A DNA stretch of 64,000 bases, from NCBI GenBank assembly GCA_039197885.1, contig JBCCTY010000001.1:1088-65087 (forward strand). The letters run 5' to 3'. Positions 5,452-50,700 of this stretch are shown here, in pieces. The position numbers and the translations under genes are program-made. This stretch comes from Actinomycetota bacterium. Lineage in GTDB: Bacteria > Actinomycetota > Acidimicrobiia > Acidimicrobiales > Poriferisodalaceae. Each line of letters starts with the position of its first letter. Position 1 is the stretch's first letter. Under the pieces are notes generated by a model. That model was not told the DNA's origin. It ran no database searches and saw only the letters and a program-made list of their open reading frames with translations.

Positions 5452-7134
<1,683 letters not shown>

Positions 7135-7225
7135 GTGAGGCCCTCCGTTTCCTCGACGAGGGTACGGACTTCATCGCCCGGCACGCGCTCCCTTGGGCAG
7201 TCGCTACCTAGCGTGACCTGAACCG

Positions 7226-8179
7226 TTGGACATCACGGAAGGTGACGGGCATTCTGACCGTCCCTCGCAACGGGCCACCGCCTCGGAAGGCGCTCAGGTG
7301 GGACGCGGCCCGAACACCTCAACGACGATCCGCCGCTACGTGAAGGAGCGGGATCGGCTCTCCTGGGCGGAGAGCACCTCGAAGACCTCCCGGTGGGTGC
7401 TCCACGACTTCCAGCGCGCTGCGCCGAAGCGAGTCACCGAGGTCCGCCCGAAGCACGTGTCCAAGTGGCTGCGGAGCAGACGCAACGGCCGCATCCCGAA
7501 GGACACCACCCTCCGTACCCGGCTCTCGATCGTGCGAGCCTGGGGCGACTGGCTCATCGACCAGCGCATCGTGAAGGCCAACCCGACCGCCGGTCTCACC
7601 ATCCGGGCCGAACGGCCGGCGATCCCCCGGGCGATCCCCGCAGACGCCGTCCCTCGCCTCCTGGAGGCGTGCCCCGACGAACGAGCACGAGCCATCGTAC
7701 TGCTCTCTCTTCACCTCGGGCTGCGGCGCGCCGAGCTCGCCGGTCTCCGCATCGGCGACATCGACATCGGCCGCCGGCAGCTCGTGATCCGCGGGAAGGG
7801 CGGGTGGACCGACGTGATGCCGGTCCCCGAGGAGGCATGGATCGCGCTCATCAGCTACCTCGCCGAGCATCCGGCCTCGAGCGGGCCGCTGTTCCGGTCC
7901 TTCGTCACCGATGAGGCGCTCAAGCCGGCGTGGATCTACCGCATCACCGCGACCGCGCTCTATGACTCCGGGATCAAGACCGGCCCGCACGACGGCATGT
8001 CGTTGCACTCGCTCCGCCACCGCATGGTCCTCGACGTCCTGGAGCGCACGAAGGACCCGCAACGGGCCCGGCTCGCGTCTCGGCATCGGTCGTGGGCCGG
8101 GTTCCAGGCGTACACGAACGTGACCCTACGAACCGACGACCTGACCGAGATCCTGGATGGTCGCCGCTACCGGCCGTGA
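7226..8179 (+). CDS. tyrosine recombinase / phage integrase
   Basis: C-terminal catalytic region LGLRRAELAGLRIGDID, HSLRHRMVLDVL, and a Tyr near the end (FQAYTNV). The ORF opens with TTG at 7226, so the true start may lie downstream. Confidence 0.85.
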   Translation: MDITEGDGHSDRPSQRATASEGAQVGRGPNTSTTIRRYVKERDRLSWAESTSKTSRWVLHDFQRAAPKRVTEVRPKHVSKWLRSRRNGRIPKDTTLRTRLSIVRAWGDWLIDQRIVKANPTAGLTIRAERPAIPRAIPADAVPRLLEACPDERARAIVLLSLHLGLRRAELAGLRIGDIDIGRRQLVIRGKGGWTDVMPVPEEAWIALISYLAEHPASSGPLFRSFVTDEALKPAWIYRITATALYDSGIKTGPHDGMSLHSLRHRMVLDVLERTKDPQRARLASRHRSWAGFQAYTNVTLRTDDLTEILDGRRYRP

Positions 8180-8282: not shown

Positions 8283-8397
8283 ACTCGGAGGGACGGCCTC
8301 CGCCTGTTGTTTCCCGCCCGCCCGAGCTATCGCGAGCGTGTCATGCGAACCTGTGAGCAGGCAGTTTCGGTGCGCGGAGAGTGGTCAGCAGGGACTG

Positions 8398-8793
8398 CTA
8401 TGCCCAGCACCACTCCGACTCTGACCAGGGCGCACGGCCGAGCTCGGACCGGAGGCCCTCGGTGACGAGCACCTGGACGTCGACGTCGGTGTAGAACTCG
8501 GCGAGGGTGGCGCCGTCGCCGTGGCGGGCGACCCGGTCGGCGAGGTACCGCTCGGCGTGCTGGGCGAGCCCGACGTGGCTGCCGTTGCGAGCGTCGGGAT
8601 CGAAGGCCGATTCGCAGGCCATCATCCGCAGCGTCCAGCCCTGGTGCAGGAGCGGCACGTGGCGGTGCACGGCGTCGGCGACGTCGTCGGGCACCTGGTG
8701 GGTGCCGTTGGCGACGGCCACCGTGTCGGGCACGAGACCGACGGTGTGGAGGTACACGGCTGCGGCTGCGACCACGACGAGCAGGACGCGCAT
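8398..8793 (-). CDS. membrane-anchored lysozyme-like / transglycosylase (SLT/Rpf-like) protein
   Basis: N-terminal hydrophobic segment MRVLLVVVAAAAVYL and the motif CESAFDPDARNGSHVGLAQH (CES...GL.Q). The ATG at 8793 shares a base with the upstream stop. Confidence 0.6.
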   Translation of the reverse strand: MRVLLVVVAAAAVYLHTVGLVPDTVAVANGTHQVPDDVADAVHRHVPLLHQGWTLRMMACESAFDPDARNGSHVGLAQHAERYLADRVARHGDGATLAEFYTDVDVQVLVTEGLRSELGRAPWSESEWCWA

Positions 8794-10475
8794 CAGGCCG
8801 CTCGGCGGCCGTGGTGCTTCCCGGCGCACGATCGGCACATCGGCGCGAGGTTGGATGGCTCGAGGTTCGCGCGGTCACCGTCGACCGGAACGACGATCAC
8901 CTGCCGGTCGGCGCGGTTCGACCAGTCGAGCTGCTTGCCGCATCGGTCGCCAACGCAGCGCGGGTGTTCGCCGGCGAGGCTCGTCCAGAGCGCGAGCGCT
9001 GTCGAGGCGACGGTGCCGTCTCGCTTCCGGGCGAGTGGATGATCAGGTAGGTGCACGCGTGCGGGCGGCTCATCCCGCTGCGGGGTGACGCTCTGAGAGG
9101 CCGTCTCCGGGTCGTTGGGCACCTGACCCCGCAACCAGTGCTCGATCTCGTCGCTGAGGGGTGTCTCCGTCGCTGTCGCCGAATCCTGAGGGGGGTGAGT
9201 GAGGTAGGGGGTGGGGCCCTCGGTCTCTGTGGGTCGAAACGGGGGGGTGTGGCCGGTTCCACCCCCCTCCGGTCCACCCCCCTCGCGGGGATCGGGCATG
9301 GCGCGTCGTGGTGCGTACCGCTCGACGACGCTCGGGATCTGGTCGTCAGGAAGCCATGCGTACTGGACTCGTTGGGGCACGCTCATCCCGGCGGAGATCA
9401 TGAACGCCTGGCCGCTGTTGATGGGCAGCAAGTGCGCAGGGGTCTGGTCCGCAAACGAGCCCATCACCACCTCGACGTCGCTGCGCTGGGAGAGGTGCCC
9501 GCAGGACCGGGCAGCGAAGTTCGCACGGATCTCGGTGTCGACCGAGCGATGCCCGGTGGTCTGGGTGGAGGCCACGACCATGACCCCGTCCTTGCGATGC
9601 TCCTTCACGAGCTTCCAGACGAGTCGCGCTGCTGCCTTGTTCGTTAGGACCTGGTGGAGCTCGTCGATGAACACGACGATCGGGGCCGGTCGGCCCTGGA
9701 GGTCACGGCACTGGTACAGGCTGGACCGGCGGTGCGACCGGATCCATCTGCGGTTCGCCTCGGCGTGTTCGACGACTTGCCGGAGCACGCTGGCCCAGTC
9801 CTTGGACTCGAGGGCACAGCCGGTGAAGACCTGTCGGTCGCCGAGCTCCTCTGCTGCGTCAAGCCATCGGGCAGCGTCGACCTCGCCTGGGTCGATGAGG
9901 TACATGTGCACGCCACCACGTGCCAGGTAGCCAGCCATCATGATCGTGGTGAGAGCGGTCTTGCCGGCACCGGTGAGGCCAGCGATGAGGACGTGCGGGG
10001 CGGGTTCTCGTTCGCCTGGGACGGCTTGGACGAGGGTCTTGCCGTTCATGGTCTGGCCGAGCCAGATGTAGGGCGTGTCGCGGTCGCCGGTCGGGGTCCA
10101 GAGCAGAGGTCCGGTGGGTCGTGCTCGGAGATCGATCGCGAGGCGTCCCCGTCGGGAGCCGAGGCCGTTGTCGGCGAGGACCTCGATGTGGGTGGCTTCG
10201 AGGTCCTCGGCCAGACCGGCGGCGACCTTCGCGATGTCTTCGATCTGGCCGCCCATGGGGCACTGCACCGCGAAGATGTAGAGGCCGTCTCGGACGAGCT
10301 CGGGCGCGCCGAGACTGGGCCACTCCTCTCGCTTCGTTTCTCCGATGCCGACCTTGCGGACCAGGCCCCTGGCGGCGCAGGCCTCGTCCCACAGCTCCGC
10401 TACTTGGGTCGGGGTGTAGGAGGCGCGGTCCGAGGGGAGTGATGTGAGGCGCTGCCAGGCGCTGCGGATCCCCAT
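8793..10475 (-). CDS. FtsK/SpoIIIE/TraB-type P-loop DNA translocase with C-terminal degenerate HNH/zinc-finger module
   Basis: Walker A GLTGAGKT, Walker B VVFIDELH and a Pro/Gly/Thr linker. The C-terminus reads C-x4-C ... NLAPMCRSCAGKHH, which is HNH-like but lacks the first DH. Confidence 0.8.
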   Translation of the reverse strand: MGIRSAWQRLTSLPSDRASYTPTQVAELWDEACAARGLVRKVGIGETKREEWPSLGAPELVRDGLYIFAVQCPMGGQIEDIAKVAAGLAEDLEATHIEVLADNGLGSRRGRLAIDLRARPTGPLLWTPTGDRDTPYIWLGQTMNGKTLVQAVPGEREPAPHVLIAGLTGAGKTALTTIMMAGYLARGGVHMYLIDPGEVDAARWLDAAEELGDRQVFTGCALESKDWASVLRQVVEHAEANRRWIRSHRRSSLYQCRDLQGRPAPIVVFIDELHQVLTNKAAARLVWKLVKEHRKDGVMVVASTQTTGHRSVDTEIRANFAARSCGHLSQRSDVEVVMGSFADQTPAHLLPINSGQAFMISAGMSVPQRVQYAWLPDDQIPSVVERYAPRRAMPDPREGGGPEGGGTGHTPPFRPTETEGPTPYLTHPPQDSATATETPLSDEIEHWLRGQVPNDPETASQSVTPQRDEPPARVHLPDHPLARKRDGTVASTALALWTSLAGEHPRCVGDRCGKQLDWSNRADRQVIVVPVDGDRANLEPSNLAPMCRSCAGKHHGRRAA

Positions 10476-10476
10476 C

Positions 10477-11244
10477 TCAGATCTTGATCATCTTGGTGGC
10501 GGTCCACGGGGTGAGGACCGCTGCGGCGATGATCAGCACGGCCTTGGATGCGACAAGGATCGCCATGGAGGTGCCGCCCATCCCGACGATCCAGAGTGGC
10601 GCGATGGGGAGCTGCAGGAGGAACGTGCCGCGGCCGTAGGCGAGGATGAACCCGGTGAGGAGCAGGTAGACGGTCTGGGTGAACACGGCGAACGCCATGG
10701 CTTGAGCCAGGAAGTCGAGCTTCTCGCCCTGCTTGCGGAGGCGCCATCCGACGCTGAGCACGGACCACATGATGACGACGAACACCAGCACGCTCGAGCT
10801 GATGAATGCTCGGTCAGGCAGGTAGATGGTCCAGGCCACGAAGCCGCAGAGCGTCATGCCGGTGAAGAACCATCGGCGTGCCGGGCCCCGTCCGTGGCGG
10901 GACCAGCTGACGAAGGTGACGGTCAGGGTGAAGGCGAAGAAGCTGATGAGGCCGATGACCCAGACGGTCGGCACCTCGCCTGGCTGACGTCGGAGCGGGT
11001 GGGTCCAGTTGTCCCCGGCGAGGGTCAGGTTGTAGTTGCCGATCTGGAGGTCTTCGCCGGCGAGGTCGAGGAGGATCCACCAGAGGTGGCAGGAGCTGTA
11101 GACCCAGGCCGCAGCGAACAGCGCGACCCTCGGGGAGAGGTTTCCGAAGAGGCCCCGCCAGAGCGCGCCCGGGGTCGCCGGGCGGCGCTTGGGTTCTGGT
11201 CGTTCCCGGGTCTCGACGGTCTCAGTGACGTCGAGGATCTCCAT
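10477..11244 (-). CDS. polytopic integral membrane protein (at least 6 hydrophobic segments)
   Basis: 255 aa, Trp/Phe-rich hydrophobic stretches. 1-nt gaps to both neighbouring genes. Confidence 0.7.
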   Translation of the reverse strand: MEILDVTETVETRERPEPKRRPATPGALWRGLFGNLSPRVALFAAAWVYSSCHLWWILLDLAGEDLQIGNYNLTLAGDNWTHPLRRQPGEVPTVWVIGLISFFAFTLTVTFVSWSRHGRGPARRWFFTGMTLCGFVAWTIYLPDRAFISSSVLVFVVIMWSVLSVGWRLRKQGEKLDFLAQAMAFAVFTQTVYLLLTGFILAYGRGTFLLQLPIAPLWIVGMGGTSMAILVASKAVLIIAAAVLTPWTATKMIKI

Positions 11245-11245
11245 G

Positions 11246-11503
11246 TCAGGCTGCCGTGTTGGCGTGGCCGTTCGTTCGGGCCTTCGGCTCGTTCTTGCCC
11301 ATCGCGGCGTTGAACCGGAGGGCGCGCTGCATCTCGGCCTCGGAGAGGGGATCGTCGGCGTCGGTCTTCTCGATGCCGAGCTGAATCAGGTCGGCGATCG
11401 CGGCGCCCTGAGTCGGGTAGCGCACGCCGACGAGTTCGTCGATGCGCTTTCGCAGGTCGTCCGAGAGGAGGAACTGGATCTGGTGCGGGTCGTTCGAGGC
11501 CAT
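11246..11503 (-). CDS. small DNA-binding-like protein (ribbon-helix-helix-like N-terminus)
   Basis: 85 aa from ATG 11503. IQFLLSDDLRKRIDEL fits an RHH strand-helix start. First gene of the four-gene operon. Confidence 0.45.
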   Translation of the reverse strand: MASNDPHQIQFLLSDDLRKRIDELVGVRYPTQGAAIADLIQLGIEKTDADDPLSEAEMQRALRFNAAMGKNEPKARTNGHANTAA

Positions 11504-11522
11504 GACGAGACGGCTCCCTATG

Positions 11523-11642
11523 TCATCGGTTGGAGTACCGATGACGGTGGCACATCTCCAATTCGGGGTCAAGCATGGTCGGTCATGGTCGACCCTGGAG
11601 CGGTCCGATACCGTCCTGGGCGCATCGGTTGGAGCTGATGCG
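11523..11642. promoter_or_regulatory. two related palindromic sites sharing the 12-mer CATCGGTTGGAG (candidate operators)
   Basis: TCATCGGT-TGGAGT-ACCGATGA at 11523-11544 and GCATCGGTTGGAGCTGATGC at 11622-11641. Both lie in the 190-bp divergent intergenic region. Confidence 0.45.
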
Positions 11643-11693
11643 GGGACCGCCCCGGGCCTTCGGGTCCGGGGCCCCTCGCGTCGGGCGTGGGAG

Positions 11694-11930
11694 GTGGGCG
11701 TGGAAGACGAAGACGACGGCGGCACCTGGGACGGTGCACCCGTGTGGCTGTTCCTGCTGGCCGGGTTCATGAGCCTCGCTGCGGTGATCGCCGTCAGCGC
11801 TCCGCTCAACGAGGGTCTCGACCTCGACTTCACCCAACAGGTCGTGCTCCGTGGCGAGTTCGCTGGCCCGTGGCTCATCTCGGCCTCGGTCCTGTGGGCT
11901 GCCGTGGCGCTCTGGCGGCCACGCACCTGA
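11694..11930 (+). CDS. small membrane protein (two hydrophobic segments), plus-strand moron
   Basis: GTG 11694 or 11700 after GGGAGG, high GC3, hydrophobic segments VWLFLLAGFMSLAAVIAV and WLISASVLWAAVAL. Followed by a strong hairpin. Confidence 0.5.
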   Translation: MGVEDEDDGGTWDGAPVWLFLLAGFMSLAAVIAVSAPLNEGLDLDFTQQVVLRGEFAGPWLISASVLWAAVALWRPRT

Positions 11931-11945
11931 CCCCGGACGCGACAA

Positions 11946-11973
11946 CGCCCCCCGGCCCAGAGGCCGAGGGGCG
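11946..11973. terminator. bidirectional stem-loop CGCCCC-C-CGGCC-CAGA-GGCCG-A-GGGGCG
   Basis: 11 bp of stem with one mismatch, lying between convergent stops at 11930 and 12007. Confidence 0.55.
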
Positions 11974-12006
11974 AAGTGGCGAGGCTATCGAGGGTTGACT
12001 GCCGGG

Positions 12007-12936
12007 TCAGGCGGCCAGCGCCAGTCCGTCGGGGTCGGTGTTGCCTTCGATCAGGAGCCCGGGCCCGCGGTCGAGCCGACCCCAGTCCGGACAGGTGTTG
12101 CCCGAGACGACGTTGTCGACGATGCGCCCGGTCGGCGCCGGCCACGACGCCCCGCTCTGGATGTTGACGTAGAGCGCGAGGCACGTCGAGGTGATGAGCC
12201 GGTTCTGCTCGACGACGATGTTGGTGAGCGGGGCCCGGTCGGCGGACTGCTTCATGGCCGAGGTCTGGCCGCCCGTGTCGTGCACGAGCTGGTTGCGGCG
12301 GATCACGATGTCGTTGCCACCGGTGCCCTGCACCGCGTCGTTGTGCGAGCTCCCGACCCGGCGGAGGTCCCCGATCCAGCTGTCTTCGATGAGGACTCGG
12401 GCGTTGGCCTTCGCGCCGTCGATGCACCCGGAGATGAGGACCCGGCGCAGGGTGTAGTCGGAGCGGCCGACGCAGCCCTGGGTGGCGTCGCCGGTGCCGA
12501 AGATTGTCGAATCTTCGATTCGTAAGCCGGTGCAGCCGTCGCACTCGACGACGAGGCGGCGGTTCCCTTCGATCTGGGAGCGGGTGATGGTGACGTTGTC
12601 GGCGCGGACGATGAGCCCGCCGACGATGCGGCGCCCGTCGAGCACGGTGCCGTCGACGTCGACCACGGTGGCCTGCTGCTGGGCGAGCAGGAGCCCGTCG
12701 GGCACGCCGACCTCGTCGCGCTCGGGCCACGGGGTCGGGTCCGACGGGGTCGTGGTGGGCGGAACTTGGGTTGTGGTGGTCGGAGTCCAAGGCTCGGTGG
12801 TGGGACTTGGAACCGTGGTCGTGGGTGGCCCGGACGCGACTTCGCCCTCGCCCCCGACCCGGACCCCAAGGGTCAGGCCGACGACGAGGGCGACGATCAC
12901 GCTGGCGAGCCACCCGATTCGGGTGGCTGCGGTCAT
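12007..12936 (-). CDS. membrane-anchored right-handed beta-helix-like protein with Pro/Thr linker
   Basis: N-terminal TM IGWLASVIVALVVGLTLGV, a PTTT-rich linker, then repetitive N/G/D-rich segments (NVTITRSQIEGN, LRIEDSTIFG, VLIEDSWIG, IVIRRNQL, IVVEQNRL). ATGA overlap with the upstream gene. Confidence 0.6.
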   Translation of the reverse strand: MTAATRIGWLASVIVALVVGLTLGVRVGGEGEVASGPPTTTVPSPTTEPWTPTTTTQVPPTTTPSDPTPWPERDEVGVPDGLLLAQQQATVVDVDGTVLDGRRIVGGLIVRADNVTITRSQIEGNRRLVVECDGCTGLRIEDSTIFGTGDATQGCVGRSDYTLRRVLISGCIDGAKANARVLIEDSWIGDLRRVGSSHNDAVQGTGGNDIVIRRNQLVHDTGGQTSAMKQSADRAPLTNIVVEQNRLITSTCLALYVNIQSGASWPAPTGRIVDNVVSGNTCPDWGRLDRGPGLLIEGNTDPDGLALAA

Positions 12937-13238
12937 GAGTGGTTGCACCACCCTCGACCGCATGACCCGATGCCGGCGTAGCACGTGGCGACCTCATCGA
13001 CGTCGGCCACGGCACCCTGACGATGCCAGTCGTCCGGCATGTCGCACTGGTCCATCTCGACGCTCAGGGTGTACGACTCCAGAGCTTGCTCGGCGGCCAT
13101 CCGCTGGAGCTCGACGAACCGGTGCTTCGTCATCGGCGGCATCAGGGCGTTGTCGCAGATGTCGTCGTGCTCCGGGCCGCCCTGCTCGCACCACTCCGGC
13201 GCACAGGCGCGTTGCGCGGTCTCGACAACCGACATCAC
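12933..13238 (-). CDS. Cys-rich hypothetical protein (8 Cys)
   Basis: 101-aa ORF translationally coupled on both sides within the lysis cassette. Confidence 0.5.
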   Translation of the reverse strand: MMSVVETAQRACAPEWCEQGGPEHDDICDNALMPPMTKHRFVELQRMAAEQALESYTLSVEMDQCDMPDDWHRQGAVADVDEVATCYAGIGSCGRGWCNHS

Positions 13239-13442: not shown

Positions 13443-13748
13443 TCAGTCGTGGTCGATGAGGCGGTCGACGATCGATCGCACGGAGATGCGGATGTCGTCG
13501 ACGGTGTCTTGGATCCCGGAGATGGCGGTCTCCTGTGCGACCTGGCGGAGCTCCATCCGGGTCTGCCGCTCGTCCATCCGGGTCTGTCGTTCCTCGATGC
13601 GCTGGGCTCGCTCGACGAGACGGGGCTCGCCGGCGGGCGCCTGGTTGGTGGCCCGGTTGGCGCCCTTGGCGTGTCGGAACGTCGCGACCGCAGCGATGGT
13701 CGGAGGAGTCGCTCCGATGAGTGCGACGAGGAGGACGTCGAGGTTCAC
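13443..13748 (-). CDS. lysis-cassette membrane protein (N-terminal TM plus coiled coil)
   Basis: N-terminal TM LLVALIGATPPTIAAVATF, then ERQTRMDERQTRME heptad-like repeats. GTGA overlap with the amidase stop. Confidence 0.5.
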   Translation of the reverse strand: MNLDVLLVALIGATPPTIAAVATFRHAKGANRATNQAPAGEPRLVERAQRIEERQTRMDERQTRMELRQVAQETAISGIQDTVDDIRISVRSIVDRLIDHD

Positions 13749-14632
13749 GTGGCGAGTCGGCCGGACACGTTGACCCGGGTCTTGTCGAGCTCCTGGCGCA
13801 CGATCGCGCGGATCTGAGCATCGCTGGCCCCACCACCCTCGCCGTTCGGGATGGCCTGGAGGACTCGCTGGACGATCTCGGCGATCAGGTCGGCCTGGCC
13901 GGCGAGGAGGGCGTCGACCTTGCCGTTCATCGACAGGATCGGCGTGGCGAGATCGTGCACGGCCACACCAGAGCGCTCGTGGGGCCCGCGCTCGACCCAG
14001 CCGACCAACGTCTCGTGGATGTCGATGAGCATGCGCTTCTCTTCGGGGGTCATCTCGTCCTCCAGGTAGAGGGTGAACGGGGGTTGGAGGCGGCCGAGCT
14101 CGGCGTAGAGCTGCGTGCCGGGGCAGGCCGTGGCCTTGGTGTCTCGGTGCCCGATCGTCGGGCGCGCGCCGATCGGGTCGTCGAGCAGCGAGCCGACCCA
14201 GCGGTAGGCCGAGGCGACGCCCGGGGTGACCGGGTCGTGGATGGTGTTGCCGGCGTAGGCCACGCCGTAGCGGGTGCTGTTGAACCCCTCGGTGTGGGCA
14301 CCGGTGCGACCGAGCCCGCGACCCTCGGCGACGACGGCGTGGTTCGGATCGTCGGTGCGGAACACGACGAAGCTGTACGGCACCTCGGGGCCGAGATCAG
14401 CGGCCCGCACCCGGGTGAGGTTCCGCATGAAGCGGCCGATGTCGTCGAGGTCGCCGTGGGTGATCCCGTCGCGGTCCCAGTCCTGGACGACCGAGACGGT
14501 GTGGTGGGCGACGATTCCCACGAACCTGGATGTCGGCACCACGTGCCCGCGTACCGGGACGGCGCCGAGGCCGACGTCGGTGCGGTCGAGGTAGGTGACT
14601 CGGGTGCCGTCGGCGAGGAGCTGCTCGAGCAT
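13745..14632 (-). CDS. N-acetylmuramoyl-L-alanine amidase endolysin (PGRP/Amidase_2 type)
   Basis: IVAHHTV, AEGRGLGRTGAHTEGFNSTRYGVAYAGN and GHRDTKATACPG motifs. Lies directly downstream of the tail genes. Confidence 0.8.
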   Translation of the reverse strand: MLEQLLADGTRVTYLDRTDVGLGAVPVRGHVVPTSRFVGIVAHHTVSVVQDWDRDGITHGDLDDIGRFMRNLTRVRAADLGPEVPYSFVVFRTDDPNHAVVAEGRGLGRTGAHTEGFNSTRYGVAYAGNTIHDPVTPGVASAYRWVGSLLDDPIGARPTIGHRDTKATACPGTQLYAELGRLQPPFTLYLEDEMTPEEKRMLIDIHETLVGWVERGPHERSGVAVHDLATPILSMNGKVDALLAGQADLIAEIVQRVLQAIPNGEGGGASDAQIRAIVRQELDKTRVNVSGRLAT

Positions 14633-20662: not shown

Positions 20663-22725
20663 CAGGAGGGTGGGGCGGCCTGGCGCCACGCGAACGTGAC
20701 GTCGTGGAAGTGGGCCGTGGACCAGTCCGGATCATCGGCACGGGCCCGGACCTGGTCCCGGTTGTTGGACCGGTTCACTCGGATCCACCAGGCCTCACCG
20801 AGGTGGTTGCGGAGCCGGAGCGTCCGGCCGCTCCCCAGCATCGCGAGCAGCGCGTCGTAGTCCGCCTTGCTGTACACCCGCACGGTGAGCGTCGCCATGT
20901 CACCGCGCTCGACCTCGGAGTGGGTGATGCCCTCTTCGCGGCCGATCGGTTCGAAGGTGTGGTGCCGGTCAGCGCTCGAGACGGGGTGGCGGCGGGCCTT
21001 GATCTCGAGCTGCGTGTCGGTGGTCAGGTCCCACAGGTCCCAGCGATCGAGCGCACCGGTCGGGCTGATGGCGAAGGCCTGACCCCAGTCCGAGTCGAGG
21101 CCATCTGCTGCGGACCCGGCGGGCGACGGGCGGGTCCGGGCTCGGTACTGGGCGCTGGCGCGTCCGGCGCTGCCCTTGTCGGTGAGGGTCTCGACTCCGA
21201 GGTGTGCGAAGTCGAAGGTGGTGGACCCGGGGACGGTGGTCCAGCGCTGGCCGTCGTCGGATCGCTGCAGCTCGGCGACCCAGTCGGTCGAGAGGTCGAT
21301 GAAGCTGAGGCCCGGCGACCAGGCCGGGTCGGATCCCAGCTGGATGCACGGGGCGTCGAGCAGGAACTCGATGCCGCCCGAGCTGGACACTTCGACGGCG
21401 AGAGCGAAGGACCAGCCCACCGAGCCGACCAGAGCTGGGAGCGTGGTGGTGATCGAGACCTGACGCCACTCGGTCTCGACGGCGGTGACGTTGCCCGTCA
21501 CGGTGGCGAGGGTTCCGCCGCCGAGTTCGGAGATCACCATCTCGAGGATGAAGAACTTGAACTGCGAGAGGGTGGTGTGTCGGACCCAGAGCGAGGCACT
21601 GAACGTCTCGCCCACTGACCAGACATCGGCGCTGGCTTGCAGGAGGTCGGTGCTGTCGATCTCGGCTCGCGCCGTGCTTCCGGTGGTTGGGGTGAACGAC
21701 GAGTGCTCGGTCCCGACGACGGCGTCGGTGGTCTCGCCGTTGCTGATCGTCGCGTTGGTCGGGTTCTCCAGCTGGGCGTCGAGGGAGCGATCGAGCCGGA
21801 AGATGTTGCCGGCCTGGCGGATCTGGAGGTCGACGTGGTTCGGGGTGCCAGCGGCGACCGTTGCGGCGACGATCTCGGGGGCCTTCGCGACGGCTTCGAT
21901 CACCGGGGTCAGGGCGGAGGCGGCCCAGGGCGACCACCAGGTGTCGGTGTCGATGGTCCAGACCTTCGCCGCTCGGACGTACGCCCAGTAGTTCCCGCCG
22001 CCGAGCTTCGCCCCGGTGGCGTGGCTGCGGAGGTTGCCGACCAGCTCGCCGGAGTCGTAGACGATCGCCGCGGCGGTGAGCGGGTCGAACCCAGCCGTGC
22101 CGGCCGCGTTGGAGCTAGCGTCGAGGGTCCCGTCGGCGACGATGATGACCCGAGCACGCTCGCTGGTGTTGGCCCCGTCGTCGGGATCACTGAACGCCCA
22201 GCTGACGAGCGCGCTCGCTGGCGTGGTCAGCTCCACGGAGCTGGTGGTCGGTTCGTCCTCGTACTCGATCTCGCCGTCGATGTCGGCGACCTCGAGGCCA
22301 CCCTGGAGTCCCGCGTGCAGCCGGACCTGGAGGCCAGCCAGTTCCGCCTCGGTCCAACGGCTGCCGTCGAGCTTCGCGGAGCGAGCGATGACGACACCGG
22401 ACGTCCATGCCGAGCTCGGCACCTGCATCTGTGACTGGGTCGAGATCCCGATCGCGCCGGCGAGCTGCAAGGAGGCCCGCAGATCGTTGGCACCGCCGCT
22501 GGGCTGGCGGGCTCGCGCACGCATCCGAACCTCAACCACTCGCGACCCTGTCGGAAGCGACGGCGACGCGAAGTCGAGGACTAGCGGGCTGGCACTCCCC
22601 CCCAGCGATGCCTCGGCGTAGGTCGCATCCGAGGCGTCGGCGAGAGCGCCGTGGATCGAGCCGCCGCCGACATTGGTCCAGTTCGTGGCCGCCGACCCGT
22701 CGGGCTGGACCGAGACGACGGTCAT
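20662..22725 (-). CDS. minor tail protein (distal tail protein-like by position)
   Basis: 687 aa. ATGA overlap with the tape measure stop. Confidence 0.55.
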   Translation of the reverse strand: MTVVSVQPDGSAATNWTNVGGGSIHGALADASDATYAEASLGGSASPLVLDFASPSLPTGSRVVEVRMRARARQPSGGANDLRASLQLAGAIGISTQSQMQVPSSAWTSGVVIARSAKLDGSRWTEAELAGLQVRLHAGLQGGLEVADIDGEIEYEDEPTTSSVELTTPASALVSWAFSDPDDGANTSERARVIIVADGTLDASSNAAGTAGFDPLTAAAIVYDSGELVGNLRSHATGAKLGGGNYWAYVRAAKVWTIDTDTWWSPWAASALTPVIEAVAKAPEIVAATVAAGTPNHVDLQIRQAGNIFRLDRSLDAQLENPTNATISNGETTDAVVGTEHSSFTPTTGSTARAEIDSTDLLQASADVWSVGETFSASLWVRHTTLSQFKFFILEMVISELGGGTLATVTGNVTAVETEWRQVSITTTLPALVGSVGWSFALAVEVSSSGGIEFLLDAPCIQLGSDPAWSPGLSFIDLSTDWVAELQRSDDGQRWTTVPGSTTFDFAHLGVETLTDKGSAGRASAQYRARTRPSPAGSAADGLDSDWGQAFAISPTGALDRWDLWDLTTDTQLEIKARRHPVSSADRHHTFEPIGREEGITHSEVERGDMATLTVRVYSKADYDALLAMLGSGRTLRLRNHLGEAWWIRVNRSNNRDQVRARADDPDWSTAHFHDVTFAWRQAAPPS

Positions 22726-25700
22726 CCGCCCGCCCGGGTCGTGGCGACCAGCTCGTCGGCGAGATCCTCCATGGCCCGATCGAGCGCGCCGGCGATCAGC
22801 CGGTCGGCAGCGGCTTCGTCGCCGATGACCTCCTCGTTGACGATCGAGATCGTCGGCTGGAAGTTCACGATCGACTCGGCCTGCTGCGAGGGCAGCGGGT
22901 TCGCCTGGTTGGCCTGGTCGATGAAGCCCGGGAGGCGTTCCTGGAGCAGCGACCCGGCGAGCCCTGCGCCGACCTGGTCGATCTCGGCGACGAGCCCGAG
23001 GATCTGGTCGGTTGCGCCGCCCGTGGCGAGGGACTCGACGAGTGCGAGGTTGCCGAGCCCGCTGGTGGCGAGGTCATCGACCAGGCCCGGTCCGACACCC
23101 CGGTCGCGCAGCGCCTGGATCCCGTCGGAGAACCGTCGGGCGGCTTCGAGGCGGTGCTCGAGCTGGGCGACCATCTGGTCCTCGGTGACCGTGGTGAGGT
23201 CGCCGCCGAAGAGGCCGAGGATGTCGCCAGCCTCGTTCGTGCTCGACCGCACCGACTCGACGAAGTCCCGGGCGAGGTCGGTGGCGTCGTCGAGGCGGTC
23301 CTGCAGGACGTCGTTGAGGTCATCGACGGCGTCGGCGAGCATCTCGGCCCGCTTCTCCAGGATCCGGGCCTCCTCTTCGGCGGCCCGCTCTTCCTCGGCC
23401 GCGATGTCGGACAGCTCCCGTTGGCGGAGTCGCCACACCTCGAGCCAGTTCTCGGTGAGCTCGGCCTCGTTCGCGATGAGGACCTCGAGCTCGGCGAGGT
23501 ACTCCTCGCGGTCGATGATCCCGATCTCGTAGACGACCCGGAGGTGGTTGAGCGTGAGCTCGAACTCCGACGGTCCATCAGGGCCGCTCCCGCCGCCTCC
23601 GCCGCCACCACCTCCGCCGCCTCCGCTGGCGGCACCGCGGCGATCGATCACCCGCCCGGGCGTGGAGACTCGGCCGACGTCGCCGACGTCGATGATCGGG
23701 ACGTTGGGGTTCCCGATGCCGGGGATCACGCCGAAGGCGTTGAACGCGTTGCGGAGCTCCTGGAGGGCGGCGGCGATCGGGGAGAGGTCGGCGCCGAAGG
23801 CGACTTCGATGCCTCCGGGCACTGAGGAGATCGCCGCGTTCACGGCGTTCACGGCGGCGAGCGCGTCGTTCGGGTCGCCGAGGATCTCGGTGAGCACCGA
23901 CGACGGGATCAGGCCGAGCGCGACGAGGTAGTCGAAGACCTCGGCGGTGGTGAACCCGAGCTGTTGGGCGACGGCGAAGATCGCGCCGATCTGCCCGTTG
24001 AACGCGAGGCGGGCCTGGTCCACCGAGCCGGTCTGCTCGAGGACGGCCTGGGAGTGGGCTCGAGCGGCATCGACGGCGCCGGCCAGGATGTCCTGGTTCC
24101 GGCGCCCAATGTCGGAGTAGTCGTCGAGCGACGTGCCCGCCTCGTCGACGTGATCGATCAGCTCGATCAGAGCGTCCTCGACGTCACGGTTCGCCGCGGC
24201 GACATCCGACGCCACACCGATCAGGCCGTCGAGCTCGCTCTGTAGGCGCTCGAGCTCCTCGCTCGCGTCGGTCGCTCCGGCGCTGAGATCGCCGAGCGCA
24301 GCTTCGACCTCGGCAGCGGCGGTGGAGCCTCGCCCGAGCTCTTCGTTCACGAGCCCCATCGCGTCGTCGCCCGCCTGGAGACTCCCCGAGAGGTCGTCGA
24401 TCTCGCGACCGAGCAACTGGTAGGTGTCGACCAGCTGCATCGTCGGGTCATCGACGCCCTCGATGCTCTCCCGGAGCCGCAACAGTGCAGCGAGCGCCGC
24501 CTCGGTGCCCTCGTCACCGATCTCGCGGATCGTGTCCCGGAGTTCGATGAGCTCCAGCGAGGCGCCGACGCCGCCGGATCCGAAGTCGCCGGCGAGGAAG
24601 CTCTCGATTCGATCGATGGCTTCGCCGAACTCGGCCTGGAACTCGTCGGCGCTGGTGCTGAGGATTCCGTCGATCTTGTCCCCGGTGGTCTGAGCTTCGT
24701 CCCCGAGGATCCCCATGATGATGGCGGCACCGCCGATCGCGGTCGCCAGGAGGCCGGCGGCACCAGCCGCGGCGCCGAGGCCGGCGGTGACTCGACTGAT
24801 GCCGGTCGTGCCAGCCGCCCGGAGGTTCGTGAACTGGGTGCGGACGTTGCTGATGCGGTCGCCGAGCAGTCGGCTCGCTGCGGCTGCGGCGAGAGAGGCG
24901 GCAGTGACGCCGGTGAGCACGACCACGGCTTGGCGTGCCGGGCCAGGCATGCTGCCGATCGCTTCGGCGGCGTCGGCGAGAGCGGACGCAGTGGGACCGA
25001 TGACGGGCAGCAAGACGTCGCCGAAGGCGATCCCGACGTCGAGGAGGTTGACGGCGAGCTGGCGCAGCTGGAAGGCGGCGGTCTCCGTGCGCTCGGCGAA
25101 CTCCGCCTGGAGGGCGCTGTTCTCGGCGTAGGCGCCTTCGGCGGTCGTGAGGGTGCGGTTCACGAGGTCGCCGGCGCCTGCGAGGGACTGGAAGGTGCGA
25201 ACGACGCGGACGTCGGAGAGGCCGAGCTCGTCGAGGACCTGAGTGACGCTGGCGCCGCGCTCCTCGACGCGTCCCAGTCCGATCACGAACTCGTTGAACG
25301 CTGCGGCGGCGTCCTCGGCGAAGAGCCCGGCGAAGGCGTCCTCGCTGAGCCCGGCCACCTCGGCGAAGGTCGCCAGGGAGTCAGTGCCGTCGGCGACGGC
25401 CGTCGACATCTCGTTGAGCGCTCGTCCGATGGCCGTGCCGGCTGCTTCGGCGGGCAGACCGACCGAGACGGCGGCCGTCGCCAGGGCGAGGGTCTGGGCT
25501 TCGGTGAAGCCGGCGACCTCGCCGTAGGAGGCGAGCCGGTTGGTGAGCTCGAGGATCTCGGCTTCGGTGGCCGCGAAGTTGTTGCCCAGCGCGACGAGCG
25601 TCGACCCGAACTCGTCGAACTGGTCCTCGGCGAGGCCGGTGATCTCGCTGATCCGGGCGAGGCTGAATGCGGCCTCGTCGGCGTTGAGGACCGTGGTCTG

Positions 25701-26102
25701 GACGAGCTGACCGATGACGTCGGTGAACTCGTCGATGCCCTGCGTGGAGATGCCGAGCTGACCGGCGGACTCGGCGATCTGAGCGATCTCTCCGGGCAGG
25801 AGTCCGAGCTCACCGGCGAGGCTCCGGAGTGCGACCTCGAGCTCGGCGAACTCGGCGGGCGTGCCCTCGACGGTCTTGCGGACCCCGGTGAAGTCCGACT
25901 GCCACCGGACGGCCGCAGCGGCCGACAGACCGAGCGCGCCGGCCAGGCCGGCGGAGAGACCGAGGCCGACCTGGGCGACCTCGTCGCTGAAGCCCCGCAT
26001 GTCGCGAGCGGCTCGGTCGAGACCGAGTGACCAGCGGCGTGCGTCGGCGACGAGGAACCCGGTGACGGTCGGGCCACGGCCACGTCCGAGGGCAGCGGTC
26101 AT
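22722..26102 (-). CDS. tape measure protein
   Basis: 1126 aa, Ala/Gly/Leu-rich helical repeats, an internal run of 14 Gly. Located after the chaperone pair. Confidence 0.9.
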   Translation of the reverse strand: MTAALGRGRGPTVTGFLVADARRWSLGLDRAARDMRGFSDEVAQVGLGLSAGLAGALGLSAAAAVRWQSDFTGVRKTVEGTPAEFAELEVALRSLAGELGLLPGEIAQIAESAGQLGISTQGIDEFTDVIGQLVQTTVLNADEAAFSLARISEITGLAEDQFDEFGSTLVALGNNFAATEAEILELTNRLASYGEVAGFTEAQTLALATAAVSVGLPAEAAGTAIGRALNEMSTAVADGTDSLATFAEVAGLSEDAFAGLFAEDAAAAFNEFVIGLGRVEERGASVTQVLDELGLSDVRVVRTFQSLAGAGDLVNRTLTTAEGAYAENSALQAEFAERTETAAFQLRQLAVNLLDVGIAFGDVLLPVIGPTASALADAAEAIGSMPGPARQAVVVLTGVTAASLAAAAASRLLGDRISNVRTQFTNLRAAGTTGISRVTAGLGAAAGAAGLLATAIGGAAIIMGILGDEAQTTGDKIDGILSTSADEFQAEFGEAIDRIESFLAGDFGSGGVGASLELIELRDTIREIGDEGTEAALAALLRLRESIEGVDDPTMQLVDTYQLLGREIDDLSGSLQAGDDAMGLVNEELGRGSTAAAEVEAALGDLSAGATDASEELERLQSELDGLIGVASDVAAANRDVEDALIELIDHVDEAGTSLDDYSDIGRRNQDILAGAVDAARAHSQAVLEQTGSVDQARLAFNGQIGAIFAVAQQLGFTTAEVFDYLVALGLIPSSVLTEILGDPNDALAAVNAVNAAISSVPGGIEVAFGADLSPIAAALQELRNAFNAFGVIPGIGNPNVPIIDVGDVGRVSTPGRVIDRRGAASGGGGGGGGGGGGSGPDGPSEFELTLNHLRVVYEIGIIDREEYLAELEVLIANEAELTENWLEVWRLRQRELSDIAAEEERAAEEEARILEKRAEMLADAVDDLNDVLQDRLDDATDLARDFVESVRSSTNEAGDILGLFGGDLTTVTEDQMVAQLEHRLEAARRFSDGIQALRDRGVGPGLVDDLATSGLGNLALVESLATGGATDQILGLVAEIDQVGAGLAGSLLQERLPGFIDQANQANPLPSQQAESIVNFQPTISIVNEEVIGDEAAADRLIAGALDRAMEDLADELVATTRAGG

Positions 26103-32798: not shown

Positions 32799-34052
32799 TC
32801 AGGCGGGCGCCGGGTTCGGCGCGTCCGGGTCCTGGTCGTCGGGATCGGCGTCGTCGGGGCCGCCGACGACGGTCATGTTCTGCGGGATCATCCAGCCACC
32901 GATGGCCGGGTCGCTCGGCAGGTTGATGCGCTGGCGGGCCTCGTTGCCCTCGAAGATCCCCCACTGTCGGCCCTTCACCAGGGCCTCGAGGGTGCTCTTG
33001 AAGTCGGTGCGGAGGAACCCGGCGACGTCGTGCTCGGCGAACCGGCCGGCCGGGTTCAGCCACTCGGCCGAGATCCGCTGGCTGATGCGCTGGAGCAGCT
33101 GGCCGAAGGTGTAGATCAGCGTGACGATCTGCTGCTGCTCGAGCCCGGTGCCCCAGTTGGACGAGCTGTCGAAGTCGGCCAGCGTGAACGGCGGGAGCCC
33201 GAACCATCGGGCCGCCTCCCGGACCTGGAAGCCGCGGGACTCGATGAACTGGGCGTCCTCGGGTGGCATGTCGAGCCGCTGGTACTTCGCGCCGTTGTCG
33301 AGCACGGCGACGTCGTGGGCGTTGCGCAGGCCGGCGGCGACCTGACGCCACCGGGCCCGGATGCGCTGCGCCTTCACCGGCGACAGCGCGGCGTCGGTCG
33401 TGATCATCCCGCCGACGAGAGTGCCGTTGGCGAAGAGCCGACCGCCGTACTCCTCGGCGGCCAACGCGAGGCCGATGCCCTGGCGGGCCAGCCCGATCAC
33501 CGAGAGGCCCTGCACCCCGTCGAGGCTGATCGACGGGATGTGGAAGATGTCGGCGCTGGTGACACCGCGCTGGACGTTGCCGTCGGCGTCGGTGATGTCG
33601 AACACCTTCCCGAACGGGTTCGACGCCGTGCGCCGGTCCCGGTCGCGGTAGGGCTTCGCGTGCCGGGGGTGGATCGGCTCCACGTAGCGCAGCCGGCCAG
33701 CCATGTCGTGGTACTTCAGGCCGTAGAAGTTGCCGTGCGCGACGACCCGGTCGACGAGGAGCTCGTAGAACTCGAACGGGGTCATGTCCGGGTGCGGAGC
33801 GTCGACGATCGTGCCTCGGACCCGCTGGCGTGCAGACTCATCGCCCTCGTACACCTTCAGCGGCAGACTCGCCGTCACCCCGGCCACGATCGCCCGAGCT
33901 CGGAAGATCGCCGAGAACCGCATCGCGGTGTCCTCGTTCACGGTGATGCCCGACGCCGTTGGCGGAGCGCCCATGAACGCCAGCGCGGCATCGCTCGAGG
34001 ACTCGACCAGCTGGGAGACGGTGGCCCGCTTGATGGCGTCGCCGAGGGTCAC
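32799..34052 (-). CDS. portal protein
   Basis: 417 aa, positioned between TerL and the protease. Confidence 0.8.
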   Translation of the reverse strand: MTLGDAIKRATVSQLVESSSDAALAFMGAPPTASGITVNEDTAMRFSAIFRARAIVAGVTASLPLKVYEGDESARQRVRGTIVDAPHPDMTPFEFYELLVDRVVAHGNFYGLKYHDMAGRLRYVEPIHPRHAKPYRDRDRRTASNPFGKVFDITDADGNVQRGVTSADIFHIPSISLDGVQGLSVIGLARQGIGLALAAEEYGGRLFANGTLVGGMITTDAALSPVKAQRIRARWRQVAAGLRNAHDVAVLDNGAKYQRLDMPPEDAQFIESRGFQVREAARWFGLPPFTLADFDSSSNWGTGLEQQQIVTLIYTFGQLLQRISQRISAEWLNPAGRFAEHDVAGFLRTDFKSTLEALVKGRQWGIFEGNEARQRINLPSDPAIGGWMIPQNMTVVGGPDDADPDDQDPDAPNPAPA

Positions 34053-34375
34053 TCGTCGTCACCCCGGCTGCCGGCGGCCAGCCGGAGCCCGATGAGGGTG
34101 CCGACGTTCTCGGCGTTCGCTGCGAGCACCAGCAACAGCCCACCGACGAGCAGCCCGAGCGCCGGTGCGACCAGCCACCCCGCCGCGGCGACCATTACCG
34201 CACCGGCCTTCTCGGCCAGCTGACGCCCCACCGACCGCCACGGCACCGCCAGCGCAACTGCGACCACACTGGCGAGGACCGCTCGCGCAACCCGCTCCGG
34301 GACCATCGACACCCACAGGAGAGCGGCGGTCGTTGAGTTCGAGGCCGAGCGCGCCGGCCGAAGGATGCTCACCAC
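34049..34375 (-). CDS. small membrane protein between TerL and portal
   Basis: 108 aa with three hydrophobic segments, overlapping both neighbours. Confidence 0.45.
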   Translation of the reverse strand: MVSILRPARSASNSTTAALLWVSMVPERVARAVLASVVAVALAVPWRSVGRQLAEKAGAVMVAAAGWLVAPALGLLVGGLLLVLAANAENVGTLIGLRLAAGSRGDDE

Positions 34376-37936: not shown

Positions 37937-38646
37937 GATGCCTCCCGGTGGTGGACCTTGGGCCACTTGCCTCGGTCTCGGTGGTGTTGGAGCTCGGCGA
38001 TCGACGGGGCCCGCAGGTGCCTCGACGCGAACGTGTGGCAGCTCTTGCACACTGGGATCCGGGGCGGCTCTTCGCCTGCGTCAGCGACGAGCGGGCCGGC
38101 GTTGCGGTCCCCGATCCTCGGCTCGTCGCCCTCGCGCATGACCTGGCCGTGCCAGCGGCAGGCGGGCCGCCACTTGGTGCCGTCCCACACCGTGTCGGTG
38201 CCTTCCTTGCCGGTGGTCTCGGCTTCGACCGTGGCGGTGACCTTCAGGATCGCGAACCGCAGGCGCCTGGTCGCGGCCTCGGCCTCCTCGGCGGCTTCGA
38301 GGATCTCGCGCTCGAGCTGACGGCTGTGCTGTCGTCGGGATCGTCGACCCTCGACGCGTGCGACTGCACCTGCCTCGACGGAAGTGAGTGGCACGGTGAC
38401 CTTCCGGTCGGGGTGCTCGGGATCGTCGATCTCGGCGCCGCCACCTCCGCGACCGGTGCCGTCGAGGTTGGGCGAGCGAAGGCCGTCATCAGCGTCGTCG
38501 ACATCGGGGTCGTCGAGCAGCGTCAGCGCGAGCTCGAGGCGGGACATCTTCGGTCGGCCGGACACCTTCACCTCGTCGCTGACGTGGAGCATGTCGCGGC
38601 GCGCCTGGTCAACGACGCCGGGAAGCCGGCCTCGGGGGATGCTCAT
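37933..38646 (-). CDS. hypothetical replication-module protein with C-terminal Cys/His cluster
   Basis: 237 aa. ATGA overlap with the DUF3987 stop. Acidic N-terminal half, with CRWHG...CKSCH in the C-terminal half. Confidence 0.5.
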   Translation of the reverse strand: MSIPRGRLPGVVDQARRDMLHVSDEVKVSGRPKMSRLELALTLLDDPDVDDADDGLRSPNLDGTGRGGGGAEIDDPEHPDRKVTVPLTSVEAGAVARVEGRRSRRQHSRQLEREILEAAEEAEAATRRLRFAILKVTATVEAETTGKEGTDTVWDGTKWRPACRWHGQVMREGDEPRIGDRNAGPLVADAGEEPPRIPVCKSCHTFASRHLRAPSIAELQHHRDRGKWPKVHHREAS

Positions 38647-50263: not shown

Positions 50264-50493
50264 GGGAGGGTCACCATCCCGGCCGCGTTGAGGCCGTAGA
50301 AGATGGCGCCCATGCCGACGGTTCCGCCGGCGAGGCGGGTGATGAGCCCTCCGCCGAGGTGTGCGCCGATGAAGAACGCTCCGGCGGCCAGAGCGGCGAA
50401 GAGGCCGAGCTGCTCCTGGTAGCTGGTGACGAGCACCGCGGCGAGCAGGAGGAGGCCGATGGTGACGGCCATGAACATCGAGTCGGGCTTCAT
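50260..50493 (-). CDS. 77-aa Gly/Ala-rich membrane protein
   Basis: Hydrophobic segments FMAVTIGLLLLAAVLV and GLFAALAAGAFFIGAHLGGG. ATGA overlap with the HTH gene stop. Confidence 0.5.
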   Translation of the reverse strand: MKPDSMFMAVTIGLLLLAAVLVTSYQEQLGLFAALAAGAFFIGAHLGGGLITRLAGGTVGMGAIFYGLNAAGMVTLP

Positions 50494-50690: not shown

Positions 50691-50700
50691 GGCTCCCATC

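Follow-up and report, generated by a model that had tools for sequence, protein, structure and literature searches.

What use would a tailed prophage have for an FtsK-type DNA motor that is encoded in one tight unit with a polytopic membrane protein, a small putative regulator and a lysozyme-like protein? The question is raised by a four-gene cassette at positions 8398-11503 of a 64,000-nt stretch of DNA from an actinobacterium of the Poriferisodalaceae (Acidimicrobiales; GenBank assembly GCA_039197885.1, contig JBCCTY010000001.1, positions 1,088 to 65,087 of the forward strand), a stretch referred to here as the window and to which coordinates refer unless a contig is named. By sequence comparison, the cassette appears to be a conserved, self-regulated accessory unit of a small lineage of actinobacterial tailed phages, and it most likely encodes a membrane-tethered dsDNA translocase that works like the TraB/Spd systems of Streptomyces without being a member of the TraB family. 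The FtsK-like motors of actinobacteriophages have been noted for more than ten years and none has an assigned function. The present cassette is an unusually informative version in that it joins the motor to a membrane partner, a probable regulator with operator-like boxes and a wall hydrolase, a combination that predicts recruitment of the motor to the membrane, its loading at specific sequences and movement of DNA at the envelope.

The motor and its partner genes

The four open reading frames (ORFs) of the cassette all lie on the minus strand and encode, in order, an 85-aa protein (gene 1, 11246-11503, G+C content at third codon positions [GC3] 0.91), a 255-aa membrane protein (gene 2, 10477-11244), a 560-aa FtsK-like protein (gene 3, 8793-10475) and a 131-aa lysozyme-like protein (gene 4, 8398-8793). 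An earlier sequence-only reading of this DNA had described them as packed with gaps or overlaps of 1 nt, and this holds at each junction: gene 1 stops and gene 2 starts within TGAcATG, and gene 2 stops and gene 3 starts within TGAgATG, each with a 1-nt gap, while the stop of gene 3 and the start of gene 4 overlap by 1 nt in TGATG, the A at 8793 being common to both. Read as sequence, such junctions are the signature of translational coupling. All four ORFs have a GC3 of 0.83-0.93, which is usual for coding DNA in this genome, and homologues occur on other contigs, principally the metagenomic contigs L002 (3.2 kb) and L007 (3.9 kb); we therefore regard the ORFs as real genes.

The motor part of the 560-aa protein (9291-10475, minus strand) consists of an alpha-like N-domain (aa 20-125) and a RecA-like beta domain (aa 135-395), and it carries the Walker A motif GLTGAGKT and the Walker B motif VVFIDE. 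It matches Pfam FtsK_SpoIIIE (PF01580) at 31.2 bits against a cutoff of 24, and phmmer retrieves both the FtsK structure of Pseudomonas aeruginosa (2IUT, E 1.8e-9) and the motor structure of Escherichia coli FtsK; identity to the FtsK structures is approximately 19%. The AlphaFold2 (AF2) model, based on a 55-sequence alignment, has a mean predicted local distance difference test score (pLDDT) of 80.8, and a Foldseek search of the Protein Data Bank (PDB) places it with the FtsK motor (6T8O/2IUT/2IUS, E 1e-20, approximately 417 columns against chains of approximately 395 residues), next with TcpA, the conjugative coupling protein of pCW3 (E 2.5e-18), and then with EccC/EssC and HerA. Against viral models (BFVD), the top matches are phage FtsK-like proteins. 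The FtsK/SpoIIIE motor that had been recognized from its Walker motifs is hence borne out by sequence and predicted fold. No transmembrane (TM) segment and no hydrophobic stretch above threshold was found in the 560-aa protein, the N-terminal domain of which is modelled as a soluble FtsK alpha-like domain.

Downstream of the beta domain, a Pro/Gly/Thr-rich linker (9066-9290, minus strand; approximately aa 396-470) is predicted to be disordered (pLDDT below 50 at residues 404-470), is poorly conserved and varies in length among the aligned relatives. It leads into a Cys4 domain (8796-9065, minus strand; aa 471-560) that is modelled with pLDDT 85-94 over residues 471-556 and ends in a beta-beta-alpha element. 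PHROG HNH families match residues 476-555 of the protein (E 7.7e-6 for PHROG 9443 and 1.8e-3), Pfam PF01844 reaches E 0.14, and hhalign of the domains from the three cassettes against three phage HNH endonucleases, found through weak tblastn matches and two of which pass the Pfam HNH cutoff, gives a probability of 98.5% (E 3.2e-15, 85 columns). Phage enzymes of this kind (e.g. NVP1029O_69 of Vibrio phage 1.029.O and gp151 of Rhodococcus phage E3) follow the type HPL...G.V.EHR...DH...N...CxxCN. The last 90 residues of the cassette protein align with them over the full length and keep the N-terminal HPLA..G.V motif, both Cys pairs (C507, C512, C547 and C550, invariant in all relatives aligned) and the structural Asn of NL. 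What they do not keep is the catalytic equipment: EHR is gone, Ala replaces the terminal metal-ligand Asn behind the second CxxC in each of the three cassettes, and in the place of the catalytic D-H the window has V-P, L002 has V-A and L007 has V-H, the last being the only one to retain the His. A further difference is that the phage HNH endonucleases are free-standing and encoded beside the terminase, whereas the cassette domain is fused to a translocase.

The C-terminal block is, as far as its sequence tells, a catalytically degenerate HNH-derived zinc domain, in line with the earlier description of an HNH-like finger without its first Asp-His; the opposite case that had been set against that description, an ATPase with no nuclease-like C-terminus, is not what the profile comparison returned. 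Because the domain occupies the position that the gamma domain has in FtsK and the winged helix-turn-helix (wHTH) domain in TraB, it may serve as a DNA-recognition or loading module, and it would then illustrate neatly how a former HNH nuclease domain has been co-opted as a translocase's recognition module.

The product of gene 2 has about seven TM helices by hydropathy, kept in the three homologues, and a charged cytoplasmic N-terminus of 37 residues, which agrees with the polytopic membrane protein proposed earlier. It is 64% identical to its counterpart in L007 and 42% identical to that in L002; none of the Pfam, PHROGs, NCBIfam and PADLOC libraries assigns it to a family, and tblastn against phages and plasmids returned no match. 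We propose that this protein is the membrane tether or channel partner of the motor.

Homologues of the 85-aa protein lead the cassette in L002 (56% identity) and in L007 (47% over the part present). The protein has a strand-helix-helix sequence pattern and a conserved C-terminal tail of about 40 residues (...NGH..AA), and it has a profile match to PHROG 24852, a family of unknown function (E 0.0056). The earlier label of a ribbon-helix-helix (RHH)-like protein found no support: Pfam, NCBIfam, phmmer against the PDB and a PDB profile search gave no match, and hhalign with CopG returned the expected strand-helix register at a non-significant probability of 1.3%, leaving the strand/helix/helix pattern only. 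We consider the 85-aa protein to be probably a DNA-binding autoregulator. All three homologues end in ...TAA or ...PAAA (11246-11260 in the window), and the motor ends in ...GRRAA both in the window (8793-8810) and in L007; a C-terminal Ala-Ala resembles ssrA-type degrons and would hint at proteolytic control.

A small first gene with an N-terminal RHH-like pattern and a conserved tail ending in Ala-Ala, translationally coupled to its neighbour, is also what a toxin-antitoxin (TA)-like or abortive-infection (Abi) unit could look like. Gene 1 would then encode an antitoxin or regulator of RHH type whose tail is labile, and the toxic effector would be the membrane protein, the ATPase or both. 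Such an assignment seems to us highly improbable, since no TA or Abi family is matched in Pfam, NCBIfam or PADLOC, the RHH fold is without support from the searches just described, and TA systems do not typically take the form of a four-gene unit of 3.1 kb that includes a complete FtsK motor.

The 131-aa protein starts with a hydrophobic helix (aa 3-21) followed by AVA-N, which suggests a signal peptide or an anchor, and it contains the motif MACESAFDPDARNGSHVGLAQ...PWSESEWCW with a putative catalytic Glu in CES. A homologue with 66% identity stands at the same position in L007, and the gene is absent from L002. Direct searches of Pfam and the PDB gave no match, and the single-sequence AF2 model is unusable (pLDDT 47). 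Through hhalign, the protein is linked to the TM-anchored phage protein lyZ1 (probability 94.3%, E 1e-7), which has sub-threshold Pfam matches to SLT_3, SLT, Lys (C-type lysozyme) and Transglycosylas (Rpf-type), and a joint three-sequence profile finds C-type lysozymes (E 6e-5) and MltC, Slt70 and RpfC (E 0.1-0.6) with the catalytic Glu aligned. The anchored lysozyme-like protein of the earlier reading is accordingly retained as probable, by this transitive link: an exported or anchored protein resembling C-type lysozymes, SLT or Rpf.

Recurrence, control region and distant relatives

When phmmer was run exhaustively against 1.84 billion cluster representatives, it returned 2,275 FtsK-like proteins, few of which resemble the 560-aa protein outside the ATPase core: a close relative over the full length (P0028, 48% identity), one fragment corresponding to the C-terminal domain (P0029), and three more distant clusters with a motor and a Cys4 tail (P0031, P0044 and P0048/P0234). 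The contig with P0028 is L002, where genes 1, 2 and 3 follow in the same order at 56%, 42% and 46% identity and gene 4 is missing. The contig with P0029 is L007, which has all four genes at 47-72% amino acid identity, its motor gene being broken only by a scaffold gap of Ns. The expectation that the genes recur as a set was thus confirmed by L007 (4/4 genes) and by L002 (genes 1-3 plus the regulatory region). On these contigs, the core of the cassette is genes 1-3, gene 4 is accessory, and the family is very rare.

The 560-aa protein has no tblastn match at E <= 1e-5 in the 50,697 phage records of INPHARED, and no close relatives were found in PLSDB plasmids, IMG/VR, JGI metagenomes or one genome per GTDB species. 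A locus search with an alignment of two sequences was negative in IMG/VR and in the GTDB genomes, and degenerate DNA patterns for IRANF[AG]ARSCG and PMCRSCAG[KR]H had no true match in IMG/VR, JGI metagenomes or GTDB, the sole JGI pattern match (L008) being rejected as a chance match. A protein search with a six-sequence profile recovered generic FtsK proteins only, and P0028 was not among them; tblastx of the related loci against the window is noisy in this GC-rich DNA.

The cassette was also said to have an upstream region of its own with two related palindromes. Part of this stands: the palindrome proximal to gene 1 (GTCATCGGT-N6-ACCGATGAC, 11522-11545) and a second, distal box (ACCGATGCG, 11621-11629) are present, together with a TTGACC at 11567-11572 and a ribosome-binding site (RBS) GGGAG at 11514-11518, and the region 11504-11699 is conserved in L002. 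What has to be amended is its extent, as the space between the upstream hairpin and gene 1 is partly coding. A probable 76-aa gene with two TM helices occupies 11700-11930 on the plus strand (GTG start 5 nt after the RBS GGGAGG, GC3 0.83; also predicted by the gene finder on the copy of this DNA in a Logan contig), divergent from gene 1 and convergent with the neighbouring beta-helix gene, in a segment of about 250 bp that the homologous region of L002 lacks. This confines the upstream region proper to 11504-11699, a divergent promoter region. It is 76% identical at the nucleotide level to the region upstream of the L002 cassette, with both ACCGATG boxes and CATGCTTGACCCC invariant, so that the control DNA is more conserved than the flanking proteins (42-56%). 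Since a scan upstream of the cassette for a consensus sigma-70 promoter gave no match, the assignment of a promoter within this region is tentative.

Both ends of the unit are marked by predicted RNA structures. The GC-rich hairpin at 11938-11981 (core 11946-11973, 12-bp GC stem), previously suggested to insulate the cassette from the late/lysis operon, is real as a fold (dG -36.9 kcal/mol, z -4.07; 0/200 shuffles equally stable), and L002 has a counterpart ahead of its cassette (dG -38.8, z -4.84). It would close the upstream late/lysis unit and the convergent small plus-strand ORF, and in this way act as the upstream insulator of the cassette. At the other end, the 12-bp inverted repeat facing the integrase was likewise recovered: it is perfect over 12 nt (GGCCCCTGGGCC / GGCCCAGGGGCC, 8219-8230/8271-8282; dG -47.4 kcal/mol, z -3.54) and probably serves as a bidirectional terminator between the cassette end and the convergent integrase gene. 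A smaller hairpin with a T-run lies at 8286-8302 on the integrase strand.

In L002 and L007, a strong sigma-70-like promoter (TTGACT-17-GATAAT in L002) and the leaderless 77-aa helix-turn-helix (HTH)-like gene that it would drive lie 3' of the cassette (approximately 3085-3209 in L002 and 3300-3583 in L007). The window has, at 8327-8344 (minus strand), the sequence ATGACACGCTCGCGATAG, a six-codon remnant of the HTH-like gene that ends in a stop; this suggests that the integrase region replaced DNA formerly downstream of the cassette.

A more distant contig, L006, has a matching gene order on a larger scale. It runs from the end of an endolysin gene through holin-like genes, a beta-helix protein (L006 1176-2081) that is 44% identical to the window protein at the same relative position, a small gene, a polytopic membrane gene and three small genes to a gene encoding a GIY-YIG-FtsK-Cys4 protein, after which come convergent genes. 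Its small and membrane proteins do not align significantly with window proteins 1 and 2 (hhalign 2% and 11%), and for these two genes the relationship is one of synteny, not orthology. That an FtsK-Cys4 gene stands in the same slot after a lysis cassette and a beta-helix gene speaks for a function that is stable in the lineage and against a moron of fast turnover.

This bears on the idea that the cassette is a superinfection-exclusion or defence unit, in which a membrane-tethered motor, expressed in the lysogen and controlled by the cassette's regulator, intercepts incoming phage or conjugative DNA and expels or blocks it, recognition being due to the dead HNH finger or to a host nuclease partner. 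If true, it would represent a new mechanistic class of entry-blocking defence. The location of the cassette beside the integrase at the end of the prophage, with an upstream region of its own and hairpins on both flanks, is reminiscent of the insulation of morons, gene 4 varies between cassette versions, Foldseek also matches antiphage HerA complexes, and the best match in the PADLOC defence library is mad8 (PDLC04140, E 5e-18, nearly the full model length), with weaker matches to SspH and HerA, which are likewise defence ATPases of FtsK/HerA type. The mad8 match, however, covers a generic ATPase core, the other seven MADS genes, the methyltransferase included, are absent and the three partner proteins have no PADLOC match. 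No active nuclease is present, and the exported wall hydrolase would be without an obvious role. Retention of the cassette across its relatives at 42-72% identity, and of the FtsK-Cys4 slot in the distant phage, is moreover not what is seen with prophage defence loci, which typically turn over rapidly, and speaks somewhat against a defence moron. We regard exclusion as somewhat unlikely, and as the likeliest of the alternatives to our preferred reading of a translocase acting at the envelope.

The distant relatives bring a second alternative into view. P0031 (L005 596-2518) and P0044 (L006 3817-5658) have an extra N-terminal GIY-YIG-like domain (Pfam PF01541, E 2.6e-4 for P0044), an architecture that may be described as nuclease-translocase-dead-nuclease, and P0234 is encoded in a phage early region beside a DNA methylase. 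These contexts would suit intracellular handling of phage DNA, i.e. replication, recombination, concatemer resolution, clearing or degradation of host DNA, or partition to daughter cells or spores, with the membrane and lysozyme-like proteins belonging functionally to the adjacent lysis region, which the cassette immediately follows. Phage FtsK-like proteins without a membrane domain and with divergent C-termini are already known (PMC3706429, PMC13587820), the motor matches PHROG 1358 (E 2e-20) over part of the profile, and its top BFVD matches are viral FtsK-like proteins. Set against this, the membrane protein and the motor are translationally coupled and co-diverge in three genomes, which argues for joint action, and the cassette, with a conserved control region of its own, is divided from the lysis genes by a strong hairpin. 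We hold an intracellular role to be unlikely.

A proposed role at the envelope and the prophage setting

Our favoured explanation remains the membrane-tethered dsDNA translocase. In this scheme, the 85-aa protein would bind the two ACCGATG boxes and autoregulate the cassette; the 7-TM protein would recruit the hexameric motor to the membrane, comparable to SpdB2-TraB or SmeA-SffA in Streptomyces; the dead HNH finger would load the motor onto specific DNA; the wall hydrolase would open the peptidoglycan locally; and the motor with its partners would pump dsDNA across or at the cell envelope or septum. We argue for an envelope function because of the wall hydrolase and of a membrane partner that looks obligate. 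As to what is moved, we tentatively prefer a role in passing the DNA of the phage or prophage, without virions, between adjacent cells or compartments of a hypha, and a transfer function of this kind, if true, would blur the boundary between transduction and conjugation in actinobacteria. The most explicit version is a conjugation-like conduit: the dead HNH finger would pick the phage or prophage genome, which would then be pumped into adjacent cells or hyphal compartments by way of the membrane and a local opening in the wall. We consider this improbable; were it true, a tailed phage would have another way to spread besides its virions.

Several findings weigh against transfer at the envelope and should be read together. 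A tailed phage is already able to move its own DNA. Only three instances of the cassette are known to us from the searches above, and as gene 4 is missing in one of them (L002), the wall hydrolase is not essential to the core. The distant FtsK-Cys4 relatives are either encoded in early regions without a membrane partner or bear a GIY-YIG domain, which points to intracellular DNA transactions. Within the motor, alignment to the FtsK structure puts Thr in the place of the FtsK ATQRP arginine; ATPase competence is hence assumed, and an Arg four residues after this position (R310) is invariant between the two closest homologues. Membership of the motor in the TraB family was considered and rejected, as every TraB-specific feature fails. 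The C-terminal wHTH of TraB recognises the 8-bp TraB recognition sequence (TRS) repeats of the clt locus, and no clt-like clustered repeats, nor any resembling the FtsK-orienting KOPS (7-8-mers), were found in or beside the cassette. Finally, the membrane and wall proteins have no detectable similarity in 72,556 plasmids, which include Spd and hydrolase proteins.

The cassette makes up the final 3.1 kb of the run of minus-strand genes in a complete tailed prophage (approximately 7,200-51,040), almost all genes of which are on that strand. The GC content of the window is 68-72% and that of the host genome approximately 70%, and a Logan contig carries an identical copy. Among the recognizable prophage genes are an excisionase-like gene (50490-50720), a phage helicase gene (38643-40391, minus strand), a DNA methyltransferase gene, and the genes for the large terminase (34369-36012), portal (32799-34052), tape measure (22722-26102) and an amidase endolysin (13745-14632), which is followed by small holin-like genes. 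Between the lysis genes and the cassette lies the gene for the membrane-anchored beta-helix protein mentioned above (12007-12984, minus strand), and on the other side of the cassette is the convergent tyrosine integrase gene (7226-8179, plus strand). The beta-helix protein has a Pro/Thr-rich linker and a right-handed beta-helix domain, and it may depolymerize polysaccharides of the envelope. Within the 3' portion of the helicase gene, at 38749-38930, six direct and inverted copies of ATGCGCGCCA(CCTTG) flank a CT-rich stretch, an iteron-like array that we consider a candidate phage replication origin.

The prophage is flanked on the integrase side by a host ABC-F ATPase gene (5452-7134) and on the other by a gene for a host 2-oxoglutarate dehydrogenase E1 (from 51042, plus strand), the start of which is overlapped by an XRE-like gene (50602-51045, plus strand). 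No direct repeat of at least 12 nt is shared by the prophage ends (7134-7226 and 50720-51045), and no attL/attR core was recognized; in the Logan copy, the phage contig stops approximately 200 nt past the integrase start. Near the N-terminus of the dehydrogenase-like protein, tandem 15-nt and 6-nt repeats (51352-51500) encode GNGST and Ala/Pro-rich repeats. Further into the host DNA, outside the prophage, the gene at 55511-57244 (plus strand) contains 13 copies of CGAAGAAG within about 340 bp (56873-57215), which encode a Lys/Ala-rich repeat at the C-terminus of the host protein.

Comparison with known systems

In the papers searched, no description of an FtsK-HNH fusion was found, and the earlier suggestion that such a fusion with this set of partners is an undescribed system is consistent with all of our database and literature searches. 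An inovirus-like or PRD1-like mini-element, combining a packaging ATPase of FtsK/HerA type with a transglycosylase and membrane proteins, was considered as well and dismissed, there being no replication or capsid gene and the cassette filling a conserved slot of a tailed-phage genome. Among described systems, cellular FtsK/SpoIIIE proteins share the alpha/beta motor fold with the 560-aa protein and differ in that the latter is phage-encoded and does not keep the ATQRP arginine. Membership in this group was rejected: neither the Pfam 4TM N-domain (PF13491) nor Ftsk_gamma (PF09397) is matched, whereas the cellular FtsK proteins found in the same searches carry both. The MADS defence system is an 8-gene operon that includes a modification module (bioRxiv 10.1101/2023.03.30.534895). 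Membership was rejected here too, the only match being to the ATPase core of mad8, the 314-position model of which is without the HNH tail and without the partners of the cassette.

The motor belongs loosely with the FtsK/SpoIIIE-like proteins of phages. Its residues 139-391 match positions 587-830 of the 1382-position profile of PHROG 1358, annotated as 'FtsK/SpoIIIE-like protein'. In Cluster J mycobacteriophages, FtsK-like proteins of the Omega gp203 family are presumed to translocate along phage DNA (PMC3706429), and the Streptomyces phages Jaresh and AndoPrime also encode FtsK-like proteins (PMC13587820). Like these, the 560-aa protein has no N-terminal membrane domain and has a non-canonical C-terminal domain. 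The published proteins, however, keep a gamma-like domain where that of the cassette is HNH-derived, and no membrane partner, regulator or wall hydrolase has been described for them.

For the mode of action, the closest likeness is to systems in which a DNA pump is placed at the membrane by a partner. At the sporulation septa of Streptomyces, the small membrane protein SmeA is separate from the DNA pump SffA and targets it, and the cassette would follow the same logic of placing a pump at a membrane or septum. In actinomycete conjugation, a single FtsK-like TraB moves unprocessed dsDNA, and DNA-transfer machines that span the envelope come with specialised wall hydrolases (PMC2440964). As in the TraB/Spd systems of the Streptomyces plasmids and integrative and conjugative elements of actinomycetes (AICEs) pSVH1, pSG5 and pSAM2, the cassette has one FtsK-family motor as its only ATPase together with a polytopic membrane protein, has no relaxase or type IV secretion system, is found beside an integrase in a mobile element whose host is a high-GC actinobacterium, and is equipped with a small probable regulator of its own. 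The differences are that TraB has its own membrane-association region and a C-terminal wHTH, whereas the cassette motor has neither and ends in an HNH-derived tail, that the element is a complete tailed phage and that the regulator is not of GntR type.

These parallels could also be taken literally, with the cassette as the remnant of an AICE or plasmid transfer region inserted in the prophage, i.e. a true but divergent TraB/Spd set. The top NCBIfam match of the motor is indeed plasmid_TraB (NF041214, E 5e-11), and its best plasmid tblastn matches are FtsK-like genes on Micromonospora and Verrucosispora plasmids. The former reaches 41.8 bits against a cutoff of 800 and covers residues 144-333 only, i.e. 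the ATPase core, and the latter are 25-27% identical over 45% of the protein. Moreover, no Rep, Nudix or Spd-like genes are present in the element, the integrase belongs to the complete tailed prophage, the same slot after the lysis cassette is filled in related phage contigs, and the scans of IMG/VR, JGI metagenomes and GTDB genomes returned no close relative. We give this origin very little credence. The envelope translocase that we favour would hence resemble TraB/Spd in the way it works and not in its descent: with membership in the TraB family rejected, our analysis leaves a conjugation-like reading plausible for a cassette that unites a phage FtsK-type motor, an HNH-derived finger that may serve in DNA recognition and a probable membrane partner of its own.

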